This document shows, piece by piece, positions 1 to 56,260 of a stretch of 56,260 nucleotides of DNA. Position 1 is the first letter of the stretch, and each line of letters begins with the position of its first letter. Made by a program: the position numbers and the translations under genes. The stretch is from a phage, in sequence record PX583170.1; one strand, written 5' to 3'. The notes below the pieces were generated by a model. The model was given only the letters and a program-made list of their open reading frames with translations, was not told the origin of the DNA and searched no databases.

Positions 1-135
1 CGGACTTAAAATACGGTCCCTACCCCAACTTTTTCCTACAGCCTATCGGCTTAATGATAACACCAAGTTAGGCGCTTCGCTTATGAGTCAAGGTCAAAGG
101 CAATCAGAGCACGCTGTTGTAACGAGCTAGTCTTA

Positions 136-157
136 CCATTAGTTGGTTGTGATTATG
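136..157 (+). promoter_or_regulatory. Promoter-motif copy P1 (candidate phage-RNAP promoter) upstream of the RNAP gene
   Basis: ccATTAGTTGGttgtgattatg; shares the CATTAGTTG core with 13 other sites. Confidence 0.4.
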
Positions 158-214
158 AATAGGCTACGCAAGTCTAATCCGTTTCAGTTAAATCATAATC
201 AATTGGAGACTATC

Positions 215-2329
215 ATGACTAATGAAGAATATCGTGCACTGGCTGCTGATGGCGCTCGCTTAAAAGAAGAAGGCCACGGTTGGAAAGACGTGCTTGATAC
301 GATGGACCGTTGCAACCAAATGGTTGATGAAATCACTACTGCTACACAATCCGAAACTAAAACCGAAACTAACTTGGAGACTCGCAAAATGACAACTATC
401 TCAACTCAAACTATCAAATCCGTTGTCCCTGCTATCACGGCTCTGGTATACCGTGCTAAAGAGAAACAGAACTACATGCAGCCTCAGACCTGTGCTATTG
501 CTGCTCTTGCAATCTTCAAGATGATGACCTCATTCACTCGTGATGATGTTGTCCCAGCCATTGCAATGGTTGAGCTGGCTTCTGCTTCTATTGCTGATGC
601 CAACCGTTATAACAACGATTTGAAAGCAATGCACTATGTTGACCCAGCTATCAACCTCATTGGTTTGGCTAAGCACTTTGGCTTCATTACCATGAACGAA
701 GACAAGTCATTCCAACAAACTGATACATGGGTTGAACTGGTTACAACCAAAGACACAGCAGTGCCATTCACTGAGCGTGTTACATCTGAATCTCGTCGCA
801 AGCCTTTCGTTAAAGGTGGCAAAGTTAAGCCATCCAAAACTTTGAAAGCTGCAATCGAATTCCTGCAAGATACTGAGTACCATGTGGAGACTGAGATGGT
901 TCGCATCATCCAGTCCATGCTTGAGCAACGTACCTACGGTGGTTTGCAGATGCCAGAAGCAATCCAGACTGAACTTCATGTTTGGAACAATGCTGTAGCA
1001 ATGATGAATCAGGATAAGCTGTATTCTGACTACTTTGCTGATAACCGTGGTCGCCTGTATCATGTAGCATGTGCTGGCCCTAACCCACAATCCTCTGACT
1101 TTGCTCGTTGCTTGTATTCTCACAATGTTGAGAACATCGTTAAGAAGTTTAACGAAGATGGTTCTACTACCATCGCATACAACATGTTCATGGCAGAGCT
1201 GGAAGATATTTCTGGTGGTGAATGGTGCAGTGCTAAGCGTTTAACTTATGTTGCTCAGAATCCAGCTGGTTCACTTGCTCGCATGATGAACATGCCTAAA
1301 GCTGAACGTCCTTCCAAGCCATTCACTTATGTTCGTCTGGCTCTGGATTGGTTCAAGTTTGAGACTACAGGTGAGTGCGATTCTCGTGTAGGCTTTGGCT
1401 TAGATGCTAAATGTTCTGGTACTCAATATCTGGCATTCATTGCTGGTAACATGGAAATGGCTCGTGCAACAGGTCTGGTTGATTCTGAGACTAAAGCATC
1501 TGACCCATACCAGTTATCTCTTCGTGAACTGTTGAAGTTACTCGACCGTTCTTCAATGAAGCCATCTCCTGAAATCATGGATGAGTTCTTGAATCCGAAA
1601 GCTGGTCGTAAGTTTATCAAAACTCCATACATGGCTATCCAATATGGTGGTGGTAAAGCAGCATTGACTGGTTCTTCTGACTTCATTAGCTACATGACAG
1701 AAGCTCTCCAGATTCCTATGGAGAAAGCTGAGGCATTTGCTGAACTGTGTGTAGAAGCAATCCATAACGCATTGGGTGCTAAGATTAACATGTTCATCGA
1801 GAAAGCTGCTGATGCTGCATACAATCGTTGTGTTGAACTTGGCAAAGAGTACATCACATATCGCCACACTGATGGTCAGGTTGTAATGAAGCCTTGCTTC
1901 CCATCTCGTGAAATCTGTGAGGCATTCAGCATTCGTGTTGATAGTCAAACTCGTGTTATCTTTGGTCAGATTCAGGAGAACAAGCCTTGGACCATTCGTG
2001 AGTCCAATCCAACTAAAGAAGAGTTCAAGCGTACCTTCGTTGTTAACTACATCCAAGGTATTGACGCATTGGTTGCTCGTACTGTTGCAGTTAAAGCTAA
2101 AGAAGCTGGTCTTCGTGGCTTTACTTCAATTCACGATTGTTTCCGTTGCTGCTTAGCTGATGCTCCACGTATGATGGAAGTTATTCGTGCAGCATATGTT
2201 GAAATCTTCGTAACCAACAATCAATTCGAGAATCTGTCTAAGCAACTCGGTGGCATTCAGATGTATCATGAGAACATCGTAACCGAAGAGCTTCTGATGA
2301 GCGAACATGCTTACTACTTCTGTCAATGA
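215..2329 (+). CDS. T7-like single-subunit DNA-dependent RNA polymerase (ORF opens at 143; ATG at 215 has SD ggaga)
   Basis: Motif A-like FGLDAKCSGTQYLAF (T7 DGSCSGIQHF), motif B-like KFIKTPYMAIQYGGG, motif C-like TSIHDCF (T7 HDSF). Shorter than T7 RNAP. Confidence 0.85.
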   Translation: MTNEEYRALAADGARLKEEGHGWKDVLDTMDRCNQMVDEITTATQSETKTETNLETRKMTTISTQTIKSVVPAITALVYRAKEKQNYMQPQTCAIAALAIFKMMTSFTRDDVVPAIAMVELASASIADANRYNNDLKAMHYVDPAINLIGLAKHFGFITMNEDKSFQQTDTWVELVTTKDTAVPFTERVTSESRRKPFVKGGKVKPSKTLKAAIEFLQDTEYHVETEMVRIIQSMLEQRTYGGLQMPEAIQTELHVWNNAVAMMNQDKLYSDYFADNRGRLYHVACAGPNPQSSDFARCLYSHNVENIVKKFNEDGSTTIAYNMFMAELEDISGGEWCSAKRLTYVAQNPAGSLARMMNMPKAERPSKPFTYVRLALDWFKFETTGECDSRVGFGLDAKCSGTQYLAFIAGNMEMARATGLVDSETKASDPYQLSLRELLKLLDRSSMKPSPEIMDEFLNPKAGRKFIKTPYMAIQYGGGKAALTGSSDFISYMTEALQIPMEKAEAFAELCVEAIHNALGAKINMFIEKAADAAYNRCVELGKEYITYRHTDGQVVMKPCFPSREICEAFSIRVDSQTRVIFGQIQENKPWTIRESNPTKEEFKRTFVVNYIQGIDALVARTVAVKAKEAGLRGFTSIHDCFRCCLADAPRMMEVIRAAYVEIFVTNNQFENLSKQLGGIQMYHENIVTEELLMSEHAYYFCQ

Positions 2330-2370
2330 TATTAATTGGTCAAGGATGACCACAAACTTGGAGACTTATA

Positions 2371-2571
2371 ATGAACATTCAACAAATCAATCAAATCGAA
2401 AACTGTTTCAATCCTCATCATACCTGTGACATGAGCAACTTATCTCGTCCTACAGTGGAGGAGACTAAAGACTTCTTAGAATTGTTAGCAGAATATAAAC
2501 AAGAATCGCATGTACTATTGCATGCATATTTGCACAATTCTGGATACTTTGATACAGAAATACCGTTCTGA
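2371..2571 (+). CDS. Hypothetical small protein (66 aa)
   Basis: ATG with SD ggaga 8 nt upstream; followed by a terminator. Confidence 0.5.
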   Translation: MNIQQINQIENCFNPHHTCDMSNLSRPTVEETKDFLELLAEYKQESHVLLHAYLHNSGYFDTEIPF

Positions 2572-2576
2572 TATTT

Positions 2577-2603
2577 GGGAGCTTCGGCTCCCTTTTCTTG
2601 TTT
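2577..2603 (+). terminator. Rho-independent terminator
   Basis: GGGAGC-ttcg-GCTCCC perfect 6-bp stem with UUCG loop, then ttttcttgttt. Confidence 0.75.
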
Positions 2604-2623
2604 CAACTAAGTCGCATAACTCA

Positions 2624-2645
2624 GCATTAGTTGTATGTGAATCTA
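2624..2645 (+). promoter_or_regulatory. Promoter-motif copy P2
   Basis: gCATTAGTTGtATGTGAATcta, directly after the terminator and 22 nt before the next gene. Confidence 0.5.
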
Positions 2646-2666
2646 ATAAACCATTTGGAGCATATC

Positions 2667-2834
2667 ATGTTTACAGTGACCTTAGTAACCTATTATGGCA
2701 AGCAAGTTTGTGAGAAGTTTGAGACTTTGAAAGAAGCCCGTGAGTTTGCAGCTCGTGAAGAGAATATTTATGTAGACTGTGAAATCACAGATGGTGATAA
2801 GCAGTATGAAGTTGTAGCTCCTACACTCAACTGA
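2667..2834 (+). CDS. Hypothetical small protein (55 aa; ORF opens at 2631)
   Basis: ATG at 2667 preceded by tttggag SD; the earlier TTG start lies inside the promoter motif. Confidence 0.45.
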   Translation: MFTVTLVTYYGKQVCEKFETLKEAREFAAREENIYVDCEITDGDKQYEVVAPTLN

Positions 2835-2848
2835 TTCCCAATATTCGG

Positions 2849-2858
2849 ACAATATTGT
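2849..2858. promoter_or_regulatory. Perfect 10-bp palindrome ACAATATTGT (operator-like)
   Basis: Self-complementary; flanked by aatattcgg and gcatgtaatattgt. Confidence 0.35.
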
Positions 2859-2884
2859 TGCATGTAATATTGTCCCGATATTCG

Positions 2885-2906
2885 ACATTAGTTGGATATG
2901 AAGTAA
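2885..2906 (+). promoter_or_regulatory. Promoter-motif copy P3
   Basis: aCATTAGTTGGATATGAAgtaa; followed by hairpin CGGAG-aaata-CTCCG at 2913..2927; no gene for ~1 kb downstream. Confidence 0.45.
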
Positions 2907-3277
2907 AGAATACGGAGAAATACTCCGCATGACATATTGAATCATTCTAGAAACATTCAGCATGTCAGCTTTGAGTTACAGTGTTGTAATGATGTGGCAA
3001 TCATTGAACTCCCTGGGTAGGCCACCTACAGTTCCAGCAACCATGACACAGAGTAGGAATATCTATCCGAAACTTGTACTTCACCTATAGCATGTCTATT
3101 AGCTACAGTATTGTTCCTTCTCCTATTATCAAGGCCCACCCACAAGCCGGGAGATAACTTTGACAAGACTGGAACTTTTGGACATGCTTCTTTCTTTCTA
3201 CAAGAATTTGAAAGAAGAGAAGAAGTCGGACTAAGCCTCTCGTTTTCACGCAGAAGCCGCCCCGATTTTGAGCAACA

Positions 3278-4378: not shown

Positions 4379-4539
4379 AGAAGCTCAAGTATATGACCAA
4401 AACTGTGTCATACATGGCAGCTTACGGTGCTTCAAAGAGACGTGCGAAGAAACTTGCAAAAGCTGCAAACCCTCGTATGCCAGCACGTAAGGTGGCTCAA
4501 ATCATCAATTCAGTATTCGACATATGGAGTATGAAATGA
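4375..4539 (+). CDS. Hypothetical small basic protein (54 aa, GTG start overlapping upstream stop)
   Basis: GTGA start/stop overlap with SD ggagg; Lys/Arg-rich; not in ORF track (<60 aa). Confidence 0.3.
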   Translation: MKKLKYMTKTVSYMAAYGASKRRAKKLAKAANPRMPARKVAQIINSVFDIWSMK

Positions 4540-13584: not shown

Positions 13585-13613
13585 GTCGTTTGACGAATCA
13601 GAGCAGTTCTGAA

Positions 13614-13635
13614 ACATTAGTTGGATGTGGAAAGA
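13614..13635 (+). promoter_or_regulatory. Promoter-motif copy P12
   Basis: aCATTAGTTGGATGTGgAAaga. Confidence 0.5.
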
Positions 13636-13707: not shown

Positions 13708-14046
13708 ATGGCTAAGATTGTAACCGTAACTCAGTACGAAGCTAACGATGGTTCCCTGTTCCTGACCGAAGCAGAGTGTAATGCACATGACTTCAAACTG
13801 GAAAACGGTGCTAAAATTGAGAAAGCTGCCGAAGCGTACCTGAATACCGTTGGTGCTATCGACCGTTCTCGCTCCATGCAGAAGAACACCATCGAGCAGT
13901 TCCTGGCATTCTACCTGCCGTGGGTTGAAGCTGGCGAGCCAGAAGTTGAGCGTACTAAGTTCGATACTCCGAAAGAAGCTAAAGTTGCTGACGCAAGTGT
14001 TGCCGAAGCTGCCGAAGCTGCTGTTGAAGAAGCTCCGGTATTCTAA
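13708..14046 (+). CDS. Hypothetical acidic protein with host-like codon usage (112 aa)
   Basis: SD aaggta; CTG/CGT/GAA/CCG-rich; acidic C-terminus ending EEAPVF. Confidence 0.55.
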   Translation: MAKIVTVTQYEANDGSLFLTEAECNAHDFKLENGAKIEKAAEAYLNTVGAIDRSRSMQKNTIEQFLAFYLPWVEAGEPEVERTKFDTPKEAKVADASVAEAAEAAVEEAPVF

Positions 14047-14413
14047 GTTGCCGATGGCAAACTTGAGAGACTAAGCTAAATCGATCTGGCATGCACTGGA
14101 AGATCGTCCGGTGCTGCCTTGAACCCGCTCTGAAAGGAAGAGTGGGCTTCAATGAGCATTCTTGTGATTAGAGTTGGGAGGAAGGCCGATGCCCAAGCTC
14201 ATGGCCCAGACGAGAGTGTTCATTGAAGTTATTTCAATTTGTGCATAATTCAAACACCAGTGCATGAGCCTTCGACGGAAGGCAATGTTGGGAAATTTGT
14301 TGTGTACAAATTGAAGTAGTTTTCTGAGTCTTACGACGGGCCTAAACTGCCTGGAGTTATTGCGACTGTTTTATTCATTTAAAATAAATGCAAATGATTC
14401 TGAAATGCGAGTT

Positions 14414-14711
14414 GCGGCTTAATTAAATTTAAGTCCTCTCCGTGGTCTTCCAATCCCACGTAACCAAATTTGGCGCATTGTGGCTTCGAGATGTGATTAA
14501 TAAATCGGAGCAATAATTAATTTGTATTCTGCGATGCAATGCAGGCTTAAGTCCTCCAGTGCGCGTGGGGATGTGACAGAGTACAAACTTAATTATTAAT
14601 TTGTATTCTGGTGTTGTTCGCCAAGATTGGTGCACTCATGATTGGTAGTGTTGGGGAGCGCGGAGCCTAAAATATTATGTGGCATCTCCTACCAGAGTAC
14701 AAACTTAATTA
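14414..14711. repeat. Degenerate tandem copies of a ~70-120 bp non-coding element
   Basis: Exact repeats: ttaagtcctc (14429, 14547), attaatttgtattctg (14516, 14595), cagagtacaaacttaatta (14577, 14693). Confidence 0.6.
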
Positions 14712-15147
14712 TGCAGTTGGATATTTCTAGAGGACGGACGAGCACACTGGAATGTCTTCAATTGGTTTAGTGTGAGAAGCTATGCCAATTTGAAACGTAA
14801 CTCCTTGAGGAAGTGCTCCTCTGGATTTCCCTCCACACAGGAATCTCAAGCCTGTGGCAGTGACTTCGAAGCTGCACTGCGTAACCTAATTCACCCTAAA
14901 GTGAGTTGCCCTGAGCATGGAAATAAACTGCTCAAACCAATGATGCCCACAAAGGTGGGATAAGTTAGGTTGCCTGTTGGTACTTGGGTTCAACACCTGC
15001 TTGCACTCGCAAAGTAGTGCCTCGTACCTGAGATGAAGTGAGTCGGGACCATCAATCCCACGTTATGTCAAAACACAGTAGGCGGCTCACAGATTCTACA
15101 AGCCTCGCAGTTCGGGAAAACCTGCGTTATCAAAACCCACCCAATTT

Positions 15148-15240
15148 GGACGAGTAGCTCAGAAGGTCTGCTCCAGAGCTTAGTCAGGTAGAGCAATCTG
15201 TTCGACAGATGTGTCGTTGGTTCGAATCCAACCTCGTCCA
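15148..15240 (+). tRNA. tRNA-like gene, unusually long (93 nt); anticodon tentatively CAG (Leu)
   Basis: Perfect 7-bp acceptor stem GGACGAG/CTCGTCC, canonical T-arm GTTGG-TTCGAAT-CCAAC, discriminator A; loop GTCAGGT at 15183..15189; the D-arm could not be folded by eye. Confidence 0.5.
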
Positions 15241-15269
15241 CCCACTTTCAACAATAACATGGAGTCCTC

Positions 15270-15655: not shown

Positions 15656-16625
15656 TTACTGCTTGATTGCACAACCAATTTATTTGGATGTTGCAGAAGT
15701 AAAAATCTTATCACGCGAAACCAAAACACAGATTTTAGTCCACAATGAAACGTGGGCACAAAAGTGTTCGAAACTTACCCGACAGTGAGTTGAACAAAAT
15801 GCTCGCCATCGCATGAACAACATTTGGCAGTCCGGTACGGGACTTTAAACACACGTATATCATAGTCGAGGGAGTGCGCGACTTTAAATAACGAGACTCT
15901 AGCCACTTGTGGTATGGCAGGTGTAACTCCTGCAATTGCTCTGGGCATAACAATTAAAATTGCTGCCTCGTATTGAACGCGAGAAAGTTCAGGTAGTCAC
16001 TTCCTAGAACAGTGGCCGGGAACATACCTAGACAAAAGTGCTTGAGAACGTTAGCTCTGTCTTGCCAGCATTAATGGCACGTTGGCCGCGTAAAGGCCAC
16101 AGCGTCTGGCCAACGTATCGGCCACCAAATTCAATGGGCTAGTGCAAATGTCAGTCACTAGAAGATGTGTTGCAAAACGTCTTCCACGATGTGCAAAGTG
16201 TCAGTCACGTGCCCGCCAATTTCCTCCAACAGTTATGCCTCTGTTCAAAAGGCTCAAGAGAGCGTCTGGCATACCGTAGCGATACGGCTTAGTTGCGCTG
16301 ATTGTGTTGTGCAGAAAGAAAGTTCAGGCTTTCGTTTGGGTTACTCCTCATCCCGAAGTTAGCTGGATTCAAAATCCAGACTATGTTCCTATACACATGA
16401 AATATGCAAGTCGAGGGTTCTTAATGTTCAAACATGATGCGAGCATTAAGCGGGTTTATACTTTTCCCCGATGGTCCCCATAAACAAGGCTGATTCACTT
16501 GGGCGGTTCGAATCAAATTTAATAAGTGTCTTGGCCGCAGTGGAAACATCATTTAAGCCAATGTATTGTAATGTTCGTAATAGTCCACGTCAGGACACTT
16601 ACTTAAATTTTAACTGGAGAGAAAC

Positions 16626-52701: not shown

Positions 52702-53168
52702 AAGAGTAATATTAGGAATGCGTAAAGTTCAAAACCAAATGGTACATGGTCGGTCAACTGTACCTCCTTCGGAGAAGGTACCTGGATAGAAATTCGTTCA
52801 TGGTCGGTCAGCTGTATCTAGCCGAAATTTGTTCGAACAGTTGTCTGACTATGAAATAAATTTTTTTTTATAATTTTTTTTTTATTTTTAAATATTGCTA
52901 CAGAATTAATGAGACTAGAATTCGTAACAAAGCTACGAGACTCGAATTGTTTCAATATTAACGAGACTCAATCTGTGACAATATTATAATTTTTATTTTT
53001 GGGCCAGCGGGGAGGGGAAGCCCAACGTCCTATCGGACTTAAAATACGGTCCCTACCCCAACTTTTTCCTACAGCCTATCGGCTTAATGATAACACCAAG
53101 TTAGGCGCTTCGCTTATGAGTCAAGGTCAAAGGCAATCAGAGCACGCTGTTGTAACGAGCTAGTCTTA

Positions 53169-53190
53169 CCATTAGTTGGTTGTGATTATG
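53169..53190 (+). promoter_or_regulatory. Promoter-motif copy P1 (right repeat copy)
   Basis: Identical to 136..157. Confidence 0.4.
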
Positions 53191-53247
53191 AATAGGCTAC
53201 GCAAGTCTAATCCGTTTCAGTTAAATCATAATCAATTGGAGACTATC

Positions 53248-55362
53248 ATGACTAATGAAGAATATCGTGCACTGGCTGCTGATGGCGCTCGCTTAAAAGA
53301 AGAAGGCCACGGTTGGAAAGACGTGCTTGATACGATGGACCGTTGCAACCAAATGGTTGATGAAATCACTACTGCTACACAATCCGAAACTAAAACCGAA
53401 ACTAACTTGGAGACTCGCAAAATGACAACTATCTCAACTCAAACTATCAAATCCGTTGTCCCTGCTATCACGGCTCTGGTATACCGTGCTAAAGAGAAAC
53501 AGAACTACATGCAGCCTCAGACCTGTGCTATTGCTGCTCTTGCAATCTTCAAGATGATGACCTCATTCACTCGTGATGATGTTGTCCCAGCCATTGCAAT
53601 GGTTGAGCTGGCTTCTGCTTCTATTGCTGATGCCAACCGTTATAACAACGATTTGAAAGCAATGCACTATGTTGACCCAGCTATCAACCTCATTGGTTTG
53701 GCTAAGCACTTTGGCTTCATTACCATGAACGAAGACAAGTCATTCCAACAAACTGATACATGGGTTGAACTGGTTACAACCAAAGACACAGCAGTGCCAT
53801 TCACTGAGCGTGTTACATCTGAATCTCGTCGCAAGCCTTTCGTTAAAGGTGGCAAAGTTAAGCCATCCAAAACTTTGAAAGCTGCAATCGAATTCCTGCA
53901 AGATACTGAGTACCATGTGGAGACTGAGATGGTTCGCATCATCCAGTCCATGCTTGAGCAACGTACCTACGGTGGTTTGCAGATGCCAGAAGCAATCCAG
54001 ACTGAACTTCATGTTTGGAACAATGCTGTAGCAATGATGAATCAGGATAAGCTGTATTCTGACTACTTTGCTGATAACCGTGGTCGCCTGTATCATGTAG
54101 CATGTGCTGGCCCTAACCCACAATCCTCTGACTTTGCTCGTTGCTTGTATTCTCACAATGTTGAGAACATCGTTAAGAAGTTTAACGAAGATGGTTCTAC
54201 TACCATCGCATACAACATGTTCATGGCAGAGCTGGAAGATATTTCTGGTGGTGAATGGTGCAGTGCTAAGCGTTTAACTTATGTTGCTCAGAATCCAGCT
54301 GGTTCACTTGCTCGCATGATGAACATGCCTAAAGCTGAACGTCCTTCCAAGCCATTCACTTATGTTCGTCTGGCTCTGGATTGGTTCAAGTTTGAGACTA
54401 CAGGTGAGTGCGATTCTCGTGTAGGCTTTGGCTTAGATGCTAAATGTTCTGGTACTCAATATCTGGCATTCATTGCTGGTAACATGGAAATGGCTCGTGC
54501 AACAGGTCTGGTTGATTCTGAGACTAAAGCATCTGACCCATACCAGTTATCTCTTCGTGAACTGTTGAAGTTACTCGACCGTTCTTCAATGAAGCCATCT
54601 CCTGAAATCATGGATGAGTTCTTGAATCCGAAAGCTGGTCGTAAGTTTATCAAAACTCCATACATGGCTATCCAATATGGTGGTGGTAAAGCAGCATTGA
54701 CTGGTTCTTCTGACTTCATTAGCTACATGACAGAAGCTCTCCAGATTCCTATGGAGAAAGCTGAGGCATTTGCTGAACTGTGTGTAGAAGCAATCCATAA
54801 CGCATTGGGTGCTAAGATTAACATGTTCATCGAGAAAGCTGCTGATGCTGCATACAATCGTTGTGTTGAACTTGGCAAAGAGTACATCACATATCGCCAC
54901 ACTGATGGTCAGGTTGTAATGAAGCCTTGCTTCCCATCTCGTGAAATCTGTGAGGCATTCAGCATTCGTGTTGATAGTCAAACTCGTGTTATCTTTGGTC
55001 AGATTCAGGAGAACAAGCCTTGGACCATTCGTGAGTCCAATCCAACTAAAGAAGAGTTCAAGCGTACCTTCGTTGTTAACTACATCCAAGGTATTGACGC
55101 ATTGGTTGCTCGTACTGTTGCAGTTAAAGCTAAAGAAGCTGGTCTTCGTGGCTTTACTTCAATTCACGATTGTTTCCGTTGCTGCTTAGCTGATGCTCCA
55201 CGTATGATGGAAGTTATTCGTGCAGCATATGTTGAAATCTTCGTAACCAACAATCAATTCGAGAATCTGTCTAAGCAACTCGGTGGCATTCAGATGTATC
55301 ATGAGAACATCGTAACCGAAGAGCTTCTGATGAGCGAACATGCTTACTACTTCTGTCAATGA
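53248..55362 (+). CDS. T7-like single-subunit RNA polymerase, second copy
   Basis: Protein identical to 215..2329. Confidence 0.85.
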   Translation: MTNEEYRALAADGARLKEEGHGWKDVLDTMDRCNQMVDEITTATQSETKTETNLETRKMTTISTQTIKSVVPAITALVYRAKEKQNYMQPQTCAIAALAIFKMMTSFTRDDVVPAIAMVELASASIADANRYNNDLKAMHYVDPAINLIGLAKHFGFITMNEDKSFQQTDTWVELVTTKDTAVPFTERVTSESRRKPFVKGGKVKPSKTLKAAIEFLQDTEYHVETEMVRIIQSMLEQRTYGGLQMPEAIQTELHVWNNAVAMMNQDKLYSDYFADNRGRLYHVACAGPNPQSSDFARCLYSHNVENIVKKFNEDGSTTIAYNMFMAELEDISGGEWCSAKRLTYVAQNPAGSLARMMNMPKAERPSKPFTYVRLALDWFKFETTGECDSRVGFGLDAKCSGTQYLAFIAGNMEMARATGLVDSETKASDPYQLSLRELLKLLDRSSMKPSPEIMDEFLNPKAGRKFIKTPYMAIQYGGGKAALTGSSDFISYMTEALQIPMEKAEAFAELCVEAIHNALGAKINMFIEKAADAAYNRCVELGKEYITYRHTDGQVVMKPCFPSREICEAFSIRVDSQTRVIFGQIQENKPWTIRESNPTKEEFKRTFVVNYIQGIDALVARTVAVKAKEAGLRGFTSIHDCFRCCLADAPRMMEVIRAAYVEIFVTNNQFENLSKQLGGIQMYHENIVTEELLMSEHAYYFCQ

Positions 55363-55403
55363 TATTAATTGGTCAAGGATGACCACAAACTTGGAGACTT
55401 ATA

Positions 55404-55604
55404 ATGAACATTCAACAAATCAATCAAATCGAAAACTGTTTCAATCCTCATCATACCTGTGACATGAGCAACTTATCTCGTCCTACAGTGGAGGAGACTA
55501 AAGACTTCTTAGAATTGTTAGCAGAATATAAACAAGAATCGCATGTACTATTGCATGCATATTTGCACAATTCTGGATACTTTGATACAGAAATACCGTT
55601 CTGA
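55404..55604 (+). CDS. Hypothetical small protein, second copy
   Basis: Identical to 2371..2571. Confidence 0.5.
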   Translation: MNIQQINQIENCFNPHHTCDMSNLSRPTVEETKDFLELLAEYKQESHVLLHAYLHNSGYFDTEIPF

Positions 55605-55609
55605 TATTT

Positions 55610-55636
55610 GGGAGCTTCGGCTCCCTTTTCTTGTTT
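55610..55636 (+). terminator. Rho-independent terminator, second copy
   Basis: Identical to 2577..2603. Confidence 0.75.
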
Positions 55637-55656
55637 CAACTAAGTCGCATAACTCA

Positions 55657-55678
55657 GCATTAGTTGTATGTGAATCTA
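55657..55678 (+). promoter_or_regulatory. Promoter-motif copy P2 (right repeat copy)
   Basis: Identical to 2624..2645. Confidence 0.5.
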
Positions 55679-55699
55679 ATAAACCATTTGGAGCATATC

Positions 55700-55867
55700 A
55701 TGTTTACAGTGACCTTAGTAACCTATTATGGCAAGCAAGTTTGTGAGAAGTTTGAGACTTTGAAAGAAGCCCGTGAGTTTGCAGCTCGTGAAGAGAATAT
55801 TTATGTAGACTGTGAAATCACAGATGGTGATAAGCAGTATGAAGTTGTAGCTCCTACACTCAACTGA
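55700..55867 (+). CDS. Hypothetical small protein, second copy
   Basis: Identical to 2667..2834. Confidence 0.45.
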   Translation: MFTVTLVTYYGKQVCEKFETLKEAREFAAREENIYVDCEITDGDKQYEVVAPTLN

Positions 55868-55917
55868 TTCCCAATATTCGGACAATATTGTTGCATGTAA
55901 TATTGTCCCGATATTCG

Positions 55918-55939
55918 ACATTAGTTGGATATGAAGTAA
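55918..55939 (+). promoter_or_regulatory. Promoter-motif copy P3 (right repeat copy)
   Basis: Identical to 2885..2906. Confidence 0.45.
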
Positions 55940-56260
55940 AGAATACGGAGAAATACTCCGCATGACATATTGAATCATTCTAGAAACATTCAGCATGTCA
56001 GCTTTGAGTTACAGTGTTGTAATGATGTGGCAATCATTGAACTCCCTGGGTAGGCCACCTACAGTTCCAGCAACCATGACACAGAGTAGGAATATCTATC
56101 CGAAACTTGTACTTCACCTATAGCATGTCTATTAGCTACAGTATTGTTCCTTCTCCTATTATCAAGGCCCACCCACAAGCCGGGAGATAACTTTGACAAG
56201 ACTGGAACTTTTGGACATGCTTCTTTCTTTCTACAAGAATTTGAAAGAAGAGAAGAAGTC

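Follow-up and report, generated by a model that had tools for sequence, protein, structure and literature searches.

Comparison with described tmRNAs

Transfer-messenger RNA (tmRNA), the product of the bacterial ssrA gene, by definition unites a tRNA-like half with an mRNA-like half, and its start-less tag frame can be entered only after the alanyl tRNA-like domain (TLD), together with SmpB, occupies the A site. The frame extends over ten codons from a GCA alanine codon to a terminal stop, follows the pattern ANDxxxxxAA, is preceded by AUA at positions -6 to -4, carries its stop codon in a hairpin and is succeeded on its 3' side by pseudoknots. Here we report that all of these features are shared by an RNA encoded in the phage sequence PX583170.1 (56,260 nucleotides, analysed at full length and henceforth termed the window), a Carltongylesvirus (Chaseviridae) genome that is 99.3% identical to Escherichia phage flopper over the region concerned. 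The locus came to attention as a block of repeats at 14414-14711. Its left third (14414-14511) forms the 3' end of a structured, conserved RNA, some 195 nt long (approximately 14316-14511), with the architecture of the messenger half of tmRNA, which we call the tag RNA. The block as a whole is probably part of a noncoding RNA island transcribed from the + strand, in which the 3' end of this tmRNA-like RNA is followed by two hairpin cassettes.

The tag RNA differs from bacterial tmRNA in lacking an acceptor stem, a T arm, the G3:U70 pair, the CCA end and any recognisable PK1 or PK4, in its size (about 195 nt versus 363 nt) and in its Rfam score (17.6 bits versus a gathering score of 50). With the coding piece of the two-piece (permuted) tmRNAs of alpha-proteobacteria and cyanobacteria it shares the combination of a tag frame and pseudoknots with no aminoacylatable 3' end. 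However, in the two-piece molecules a single gene contains the acceptor piece directly upstream of the coding piece, which opens with the 5' strand of the acceptor stem, and neither feature is seen here: the element just upstream of the tag RNA, the hairpin I2 described below, has the form of an unbranched rod, lacks a T arm and is not present in every relative.

Among viruses, systematic surveys list tmRNAs in mycobacteriophages (the Bxz1 group) and Bacillus phage G, and a TLD-only molecule in DS6A that is reported to inhibit the host tmRNA (PMC4131195; PMC11915505). The tag RNA resembles them as a phage-encoded trans-translation element, and resembles the DS6A molecule in carrying one half only; but whereas the catalogued phage tmRNAs keep the TLD, the present family is the opposite half, the tag template alone. 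We found no description of this form in the literature on phage tmRNA, tmRNA-like and ssrA-like RNAs and Chaseviridae, which yielded citations of ARAGORN and the cases just named, and it is absent from the viral surveys (PMC4131195; PMC11915505). A tmRNA variant of this kind is thus apparently undescribed.

The tag frame and its conservation

The tag RNA consists of the following elements:

14316-14324, + strand: conserved 5' motif GUAGUUUUC (family core GUUUUCG), a 9-nt complement to host tmRNA positions 99-107
14325-14389, + strand: leader, weakly structured and of variable length, ending in AUAAAU just before the resume codon
14390-14422, + strand: tag frame GCA AAT GAT TCT GAA ATG CGA GTT GCG GCT TAA (ANDSEMRVAA*), with no start codon
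14416-14435, + strand: hairpin over the stop codon, GGCUUAA / UUAAGUC (14416-22 / 14429-35), from sequence and fold
14441-14473, + strand: pseudoknot PKa, with helices S1 (14441-45 / 14456-60) and S2 (14450-53 / 14470-73)
14474-14511, + strand: pseudoknot PKb, with helices S1 (14474-78 / 14491-95) and S2 (14483-89 / 14505-11) and the loop AUUAAUAAA

The start-less frame opens with an alanine resume codon and closes with a hydrophobic residue, Ala-Ala and a stop; the repeat block starts (14414) at its ninth codon. Its translation, ANDSEMRVAA, is comparable to the tag of E. coli tmRNA, ANDENYALAA, and the two frames begin with the same 8 nt, GCAAACGA. Positions -6 to -4 of the leader read AUA, as in the host molecule (AUAGUC|GCA). 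The leader differs in length between families and folds no better than its shuffles (z = -0.6), and no upstream PK1 is found in it.

Comparable frames occur in phages that are both closely and distantly related to this one. Erwinia phage Fifi44 encodes the identical ten residues by means of three synonymous changes, Erwinia phage Y2 reads ANDNEMRAAA, and the frame is also conserved with synonymous changes in Aeromonas phage phiA050. The unrelated Klebsiella phage Madison (158 kb) has the tag ANDDVVLMAA, and a Felixounavirus has ANDNVFLAVA. A pattern search of IMG/VR (at least 120 contigs) together with further phage loci yielded at least 131 loci. Among the 131 listed, all but one read AN[DE]xxxxx[AV]A, the exception (L056) being a chance match without a ten-codon frame, and more than 100 have an in-frame stop 4-12 codons upstream with no intervening start codon. 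The matches listed contain 37 distinct nucleotide versions of the frame, every one of which (37/37) is ten codons long. UAA, UGA and UAG are each found as its stop, and differences between close pairs are distributed over codon positions 3, 1 and 2 as 89, 15 and 5. The tag frame is therefore under purifying selection at the protein level. Third-position bias in a frame that has no start codon is the signature of a translated sequence that ordinary initiation cannot reach, and such a combination is the hallmark of a tmRNA tag frame.

Covarying pseudoknots downstream of the tag frame

The hairpin over the stop codon is the analogue of helix 5 of tmRNA, and its 3' strand is the first copy of the 10-mer repeat ttaagtcctc considered below. 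A stem at this place is present in every family; it is not alignable column by column and is the weakest structural element of the RNA. It is followed by the two H-type pseudoknots, PKa and PKb, the counterparts of the pseudoknots that flank the frame in tmRNAs. We examined their covariation in an alignment of 45 diverse members, in which 14 pairs (those of PKa and of S1 in PKb) are alignable, and S2 of PKb was tallied sequence by sequence because its length varies. The 14 pairs are 99.4% paired, versus 27-49% after the partners have been shifted by one to three columns, and 9 of them display compensatory changes. In 500 shuffles, neither the covariation score nor the proportion of paired cells nor the number of cells altered on both sides was ever equalled. 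Both helices of PKa are at least 99% paired, with compensatory changes in 7 of 9 pairs, and S2 of PKb occurs as 17 different sequence pairs, all complementary. S1 of PKb is 99.6% paired and contains an invariant G-U, from which it follows that the constraint acts on the + strand RNA.

A covariance model (R1) built solely from members of the family outside the Chaseviridae recovers the locus at 14380-14514 with 93.4 bits (E ~3e-16), as the sole strong match in the window (the next scores 15.9 bits). The next-best matches of this model anywhere are the tag regions of the tmRNAs of E. coli, Salmonella, Klebsiella and Erwinia, at 20-21 bits. Conversely, the permuted-tmRNA models of Rfam give sub-threshold matches at the tag RNA in the window and, in every phage family, at the homologous position (Erwinia, Aeromonas, Klebsiella and Felixounavirus phages), the scores in the window being 17.6 bits for alpha_tmRNA (gathering score 50) and 20.5 bits for tmRNA_permuted (gathering score 47).

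A 5' motif antisense to the host tag codons

Every member listed carries GUUUUC(G/U) 42-71 nt upstream of the resume codon, and this motif is the predicted 5' end of the transcript wherever a sigma-70 promoter is present. We compared the corresponding 20-nt region with the whole of E. coli tmRNA for 99 distinct members among the matches listed. The longest Watson-Crick complement measures 8-11 nt in 98 of the 99 and 7 nt in the remaining one, with a mode of 10, versus mostly 5-7 nt for other 20-nt windows of the same RNAs. Moreover, the complement to the motif always lies at tmRNA positions 96-107, which correspond to tag codons 3-6 (GAC GAA AAC UAC), and the Salmonella and Klebsiella tmRNAs are identical to that of E. 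coli at the positions involved. Erwinia phages Y2 and Fifi44 have GAAGUUUUCGU, which is complementary over 11 nt to the Erwinia/Pantoea-type frame (…AAC UUC), whereas Erwinia phage M7 has CGUAGUUUUCGU, complementary over 12 nt to the E. coli-type frame (UAC). Covariation of the motif with the host, which looked promising for Y2 and Fifi44, does not extend to M7. Duplex prediction between the entire phage RNA and tmRNA returned full-length duplexes and was uninformative. The antisense relation between the 5' motif and the host tag frame is, as an observation, solid.

Distribution

The tag-RNA core is present in 772 of 50,697 phage records, where the region almost always bears no annotation. Its carriers are T1-like siphophages (Drexlerviridae-like), Ackermannviridae, Felixounavirus, Kolesnikvirus, Chaseviridae and G7C-like podophages. 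A lambdoid version is situated between the genes for the Q antiterminator and the holin (lysis), and a query spanning this lambdoid locus matches 821 of 5,426 complete E. coli genomes. In Klebsiella phage Madison, the 3.2-kb unannotated RNA island that contains the tag RNA also includes a match to Rfam STnc100, a gammaproteobacterial small RNA (L007, 4071-4285; 53.6 versus a gathering score of 47).

Hairpin cassettes and the nature of the repeats

The tag RNA is bordered on both sides by hairpins of similar design:

14147-14228, + strand: cassette I1, an inverted repeat with a 19-bp stem and a 44-nt insert
14225-14323, + strand: I2, a rod-like hairpin directly upstream of the tag RNA, whose 3' arm runs into the GUUUUC motif
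14512-14595, + strand: cassette U1, with 5' arm 14512-31, 45-nt insert 14532-76 and 3' arm 14577-95
14591-14711, + strand: cassette U2, with 5' arm 14591-610, 82-nt insert 14611-92 and 3' arm 14693-711

An earlier note on this DNA had viewed the block as two or three diverged copies of a unit of about 70-120 bp, delimited by three pairs of exact direct repeats. Two of these pairs stand. The 19-mer CAGAGTACAAACTTAATTA has exactly two copies, at 14577 and 14693, and none other in the window at up to 3 mismatches (expected 0.02), and the 16-mer ATTAATTTGTATTCTG has exactly two, at 14516 and 14595. The third pair, the 10-mer TTAAGTCCTC (ttaagtcctc) with its second copy inside the U1 insert, is weak: at up to one mismatch it has 4 matches in the window versus 3.03 expected, and in a post-hoc local comparison its score was reached by 1 of 1000 shuffles, which is marginal. 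We also considered the U1 insert as a degenerate duplicate of the end of the tag frame and set this aside, the alignment being limited to the 10-mer. As the 16-mer and 19-mer are imperfect reverse complements of each other (inverted-repeat pairs I13 and I21), the block comprises two adjacent hairpins in place of diverged copies of a single unit. The repetition is confined to the arms, and the inserts of 45 and 82 nt are unrelated to each other. The supposed tandem element is the local form of a more general design, in which interchangeable structured RNAs are enclosed in stems of ~19 bp along a tRNA-associated RNA island.

The + strand folds of these elements are more stable than those of their complements because of G-U pairs: I1 has a folding energy of -33.8 kcal/mol (z = -5.3) versus -21.9 on the minus strand, I2 of -41.5 kcal/mol (z = -7.1) versus -24.0, and U2 of -37.2 kcal/mol versus -29.4. 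I2 recurs with ~82-85% identity in the tRNA arrays of Felixounavirus, between tRNA-Ile and tRNA-Arg and directly upstream of their tag RNA, and compensatory changes distinguish the Chaseviridae from the Felixounavirus copies at 8 of 30 pairs. The U1 arms pair with one bulge and an invariant U-G, one relative having G-U in place of G-C, and a hairpin within the U1 insert covaries (CCUC/GGGG to CCCU/AGGG).

The cassettes vary in presence and position between genomes. I1 is absent from phiEcoM-GJ1 (GJ1), a related phage by sequence comparison with the window, and from Bp7; I2 is absent from Ecp_YSF, Mangalitsa and SA91KD. Each is individually present or absent, and their position relative to the tag RNA is changed in 4HA13 and Fifi44, with I1 downstream of the tag RNA in both. 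Conservation in relatives, which had been suggested as a check on the block, gave a divided answer: U1 is present in all Carltongylesvirus relatives examined, and U2 occurs only in this phage, flopper and Bp7, being missing from GJ1, Ecp_YSF, Mangalitsa and SA91KD. The breakpoints of its presence and absence fall inside the repeated arms, and FXie-2024a has a different insert between U2-type arms, upstream of U1. U2 is a recent insertion, and has been gained or lost by recombination between the repeated arms. Similarly, among the IMG/VR loci listed, lambdoid, T1-like and Ackermannviridae members share the arm pair GGUAAGAGCAUU / AGUGCUCUUUCC around 37 clusters of different inserts. Among these inserts are tRNA-like sequences and one of 172 nt with hammerhead-like CUGACGAG...CGAAAC motifs. 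Another element that recurs in the IMG/VR loci (for example L015-L133) is bounded by GUGGUG...CACCAC, and in Escherichia phage 4HA13 (L012, 2300-2731) a gene for an HNH endonuclease lies right after PKb, between the tag RNA and an I1-type cassette.

The stems, at 18-25 bp with G-U pairs, amount to roughly two helical turns of double-stranded RNA in the transcript, the kind of hairpin recognised by RNase III. In this they resemble the RNase III hairpins of T7-type phages and the leader-trailer stalks of rRNA operons, where imperfect stems of ~20 bp bracket functional RNAs; in T7-type phages such stems belong to long transcripts made by a T7-like polymerase and lie on the transcribed strand, as here. 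The present stems differ in enclosing small structured inserts that are interchangeable, as shuffled cassettes, and cleavage is here only predicted.

Genomic surroundings

Three further features bear on the expression and setting of the block:

13607-13631, + strand: phage-type promoter TTCTGAAACATTAGTTGGATGTGGA, matching 'putative phage promoter 7' annotated in phiEcoM-GJ1
14714-14722, + strand: CAGTTGGAT, a variant of the phage promoter core ATTAGTTGGA, directly 3' of U2
15148-15244, + strand: tRNA-like gene at the end of the RNA island (Rfam tRNA, 27.9 bits; gathering score 29)

Every gene in the window is on the + strand. The block lies inside a 1.1-kb stretch without credible protein genes that extends from a homologue of gp29 (13708-14046) to the tRNA-like gene, so that its description as gene-free DNA beside such a gene was accurate as regards proteins. 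The promoter core ATTAGTTGGA has 8 occurrences in the window. The promoter at 13607-13631 is the nearest phage-type match upstream of the block and likely the source, on sequence grounds, of a transcript running through gp29 and the RNA array. After U2 there is a CAGUUGGAU...GACGGA block, which in Erwinia phages Y2 and Fifi44 instead precedes the tag RNA by ~110 nt (L004 ~2325, L005 ~2425); modules have therefore been permuted between genera.

The tRNA-like gene, which ARAGORN does not call, has an insertion of ~22 nt that separates its acceptor stem from the D arm. Its body is constant and its anticodon varies, being UCG in this phage, GJ1, Ecp_YSF, Mangalitsa and SA91KD, UAG in Bp7 and AAG in FXie-2024a. 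A hairpin of the form ACAAGCCUCGCAG-(variable loop)-CUGCGUUAUCAAAAC at 15097-15136 is kept in every Chaseviridae genome examined and lies just upstream of the tRNA-like gene in this genus. A second gap without protein genes, of about 1 kb (15656-16625), follows the small spanin gene and contains blocks conserved across Chaseviridae genera. In it are a long-stem hairpin of the same design as I1 and I2 (16515-16609, z = -4.3), a well-formed T-arm-like hairpin (CUGGA UUCAAAA UCCAG, 16363-16379), and GCGCGACTTTAAATAACGAGAC at 15874-15895, which resembles a T7-type promoter and is one of two nearby GACTTTAAA repeats; the surrounding stretch 15861-15899 is 97% conserved in Erwinia phage Fifi44. With respect to the record itself, bases 1-3227 recur exactly at 53034-56260 (an offset of 53,033). 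This exact terminal repeat of 3,227 bases indicates that the window is a wrapped or concatenated genome of ~53.0 kb and not 56.3 kb of unique sequence.

How the tag frame might be used, and alternative explanations

Entry into a frame of this kind needs an alanyl TLD with SmpB, and as none is provided in cis, the TLD must act in trans. We propose that ribosomes might read the tag frame by a route akin to trans-translation, with SmpB and an alanyl TLD supplied in trans. Host tmRNA would be the most likely, because most economical, donor, given the antisense match of the conserved 5' motif to the third to sixth codons of the host tag. The motif could tether host tmRNA and also mask the host tag frame, and the resulting tag would be A-ANDSEMRVAA, whose 11 residues have the length and pattern of the host's A-ANDENYALAA. 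The stems of ~19-25 bp, with I2 upstream and U1/U2 downstream, may serve as double-stranded stalks for processing or stabilisation, and would thereby define the termini of the RNA and free the small inserts. RNase III is the probable enzyme, the idea drawing on its known substrate preference and its role in T7 transcripts. In its most explicit form, the phage RNA would dock on host tag codons 3-6 and offer its own resume codon (in AUA context, with GCAAACGA), the two molecules making up a hybrid, inter-genomic two-piece tmRNA. We put forward this 'tag-swap' tentatively, as a possible but not a probable mechanism.

Several observations weigh against such an interpretation. The TLD, the defining half of tmRNA, was found by ARAGORN neither in the window nor in 29 related loci, and an Rfam search of the whole window at E <=3 returned the odd tRNA-like gene and the 17.6-bit tmRNA match and nothing else. 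At gathering and permissive thresholds Rfam likewise finds no TLD in the window or in the relatives scanned, nor does a custom T-arm scan, and the set of a 7-bp acceptor stem with G3:U70, a T arm and a 3' CCA is not seen. In T1-like phages and Erwinia phage M7 a near-consensus sigma-70 promoter is located a few bases upstream of the 5' motif, and in phiA050 and a related contig an open reading frame starts right after PKb; with these abutting the core, neither an acceptor nor a T arm can be accommodated in cis. The antisense motif is a short one and, in the present phage, falls within the basal part of the I2 stem, and its host matching is inconsistent among the Erwinia phages (Y2 and Fifi44 versus M7). 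As for the cassettes, the fold z-scores of U1 (-2.4) and U2 (-2.7) are modest, and since their arms are near-invariant in the available relatives, covariation cannot separate an RNA-level from a DNA-level role.

A few candidates for the missing parts were entertained and rejected. A search for a T arm followed by a 7-mer complementary to the 5' end of the RNA gave as best candidate 16363-16386, which is invariant in the genus and not conserved in phiA050. An acceptor-like pairing of GGGGAUG (14568-74) with CAUCUCC (14683-89) has a G3:U70 and an ACCA one base too far (CAUCUCC-U-ACCA), and was discarded because its second strand is missing from relatives that do not have U2. The leader shows no significant homology to the 5' portion of E. 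coli tmRNA, as 35-375 of 500 shuffles do as well. Separately, phiA050 (L006, 4418-4480) encodes a tRNA-like element of 62 nt that lacks an anticodon arm, GGCGGC...CGAGG UUCAACU CCUCG GCUGCC A CCA. Its CCA is encoded and its T loop is identical to that of E. coli tmRNA; it lacks G3:U70, the window has no equivalent element, and it goes uncalled by both ARAGORN and Rfam.

Small phage RNAs encoded among tRNA genes are represented by the T4 species 1 and 2 RNAs, stable non-tRNA RNAs of phage tRNA clusters, and short 5' seeds directed against a host RNA by the prophage anti-sRNAs AgvB and AsxR; to our knowledge, none of them has a tag reading frame. The antisense character of the 5' motif and the want of a TLD would also fit a decoy or antisense RNA that is never translated and that sponges or blocks host tmRNA or titrates SmpB, S1 or RNase R, its frame being mimicry. 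We consider this unlikely even with the precedent for phage interference with trans-translation set by the TLD-only molecule of DS6A (PMC4131195; PMC11915505), since the third-position bias, the fixed ten codons, the interchanging stops and the conserved C-terminal [AV]A are signatures of translation and not of mimicry. A complete two-piece tmRNA, with its acceptor piece (T arm, acceptor 3' strand and CCA) encoded elsewhere in the phage, is suggested by the identity of the best weak Rfam matches, which are permuted two-piece families, and by anticodon-less tRNA-like modules in some relatives (phiA050 4418-4480 and some lambdoid cassettes). However, these modules are conserved neither between families nor within Chaseviridae as a whole, none has G3:U70, the Rfam scan of the window uncovered no further tRNA-like or tmRNA-like element, and the search for a T arm with a complementary 7-mer produced weak candidates only, not conserved outside the genus; this explanation is accordingly quite improbable. 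Finally, the first 8 nt shared with the host tag (GCAAACGA) might betray a decaying, functionless fragment of a captured host ssrA, but host ssrA has no BLAST-level similarity to any member of the family, and compensatory and synonymous conservation over at least five phage families, with the core in 772 phage records and the lambdoid locus in 821 E. coli genomes, makes this scarcely credible.

With regard to the hairpins, U1, U2, I1 and I2 could instead be small palindromic mobile or recombinogenic DNA modules (miniature inverted-repeat transposable elements or module linkers) without an RNA function. Their individual presence or absence and shuffled order between phages, the breakpoints in the repeated arms, the recurrence of the same arms around many unrelated inserts and the invariance of the U1/U2 arms, which offers no RNA covariation, are all in keeping with this. 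On the other hand, the RNA-sense strand folds markedly more stably than its complement by virtue of G-U pairs, I2 has 8 compensatory pairs and the U1 insert hairpin covaries, and there is no transposase, pattern of target-site duplication or scatter of copies elsewhere in the genome. A purely DNA-level role is therefore doubtful, and DNA and RNA roles are not mutually exclusive. The origin of replication favoured by the earlier note, with the repeats as iterons for an initiator beside AT-rich unwinding DNA, had in its favour an extended region free of protein genes ahead of the primase/helicase module, and exact repeats, which do exist. Yet each repeat has two copies, and not three or more direct repeats of ~17-22 bp at regular spacing, and the two types are reverse complementary, as arms of hairpins. 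The GC content of 0.40-0.44 over 14250-14850 is no lower than that of the flanking genes, so that neither an AT-rich stretch nor an adjacent unwinding element is found, U2 is missing in four close relatives, and the left third is explained by covarying RNA structure with strand-specific G-U pairs. An origin is thus very unlikely. Tandem promoters, another of the earlier suggestions, have little support: the block contains neither sigma-70 promoters nor intrinsic terminators, with counts at or below shuffle expectation, and the sole phage-core match (14714) is just outside it. Small RNA genes, by contrast, are a supported reading, with the 3' end of a conserved tmRNA-like RNA and its covarying pseudoknots on the left and two hairpin cassettes on the transcribed strand on the right. 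The earlier observation was therefore right in part, and its interpretation as an origin is not supported.

Implications

The tag-RNA family accounts for a recurrent 'gene-free' gap in these phage genomes, and represents a class of tag-template RNAs that annotation based on ARAGORN and Rfam misses. Its carriers include phages used in therapy and biocontrol, and its wide distribution allows the question to be addressed directly in standard E. coli systems. If this widespread phage RNA with only the mRNA-like half is translated, trans-translation can use a template supplied in trans, and were the exchange of tags proposed above to take place, the degradation tag would be rewritten during infection by way of the host's own alanyl TLD and SmpB. 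Alternatively, the family may mean that phages manipulate host ribosome rescue and degradation tagging in a way that has not been described before.

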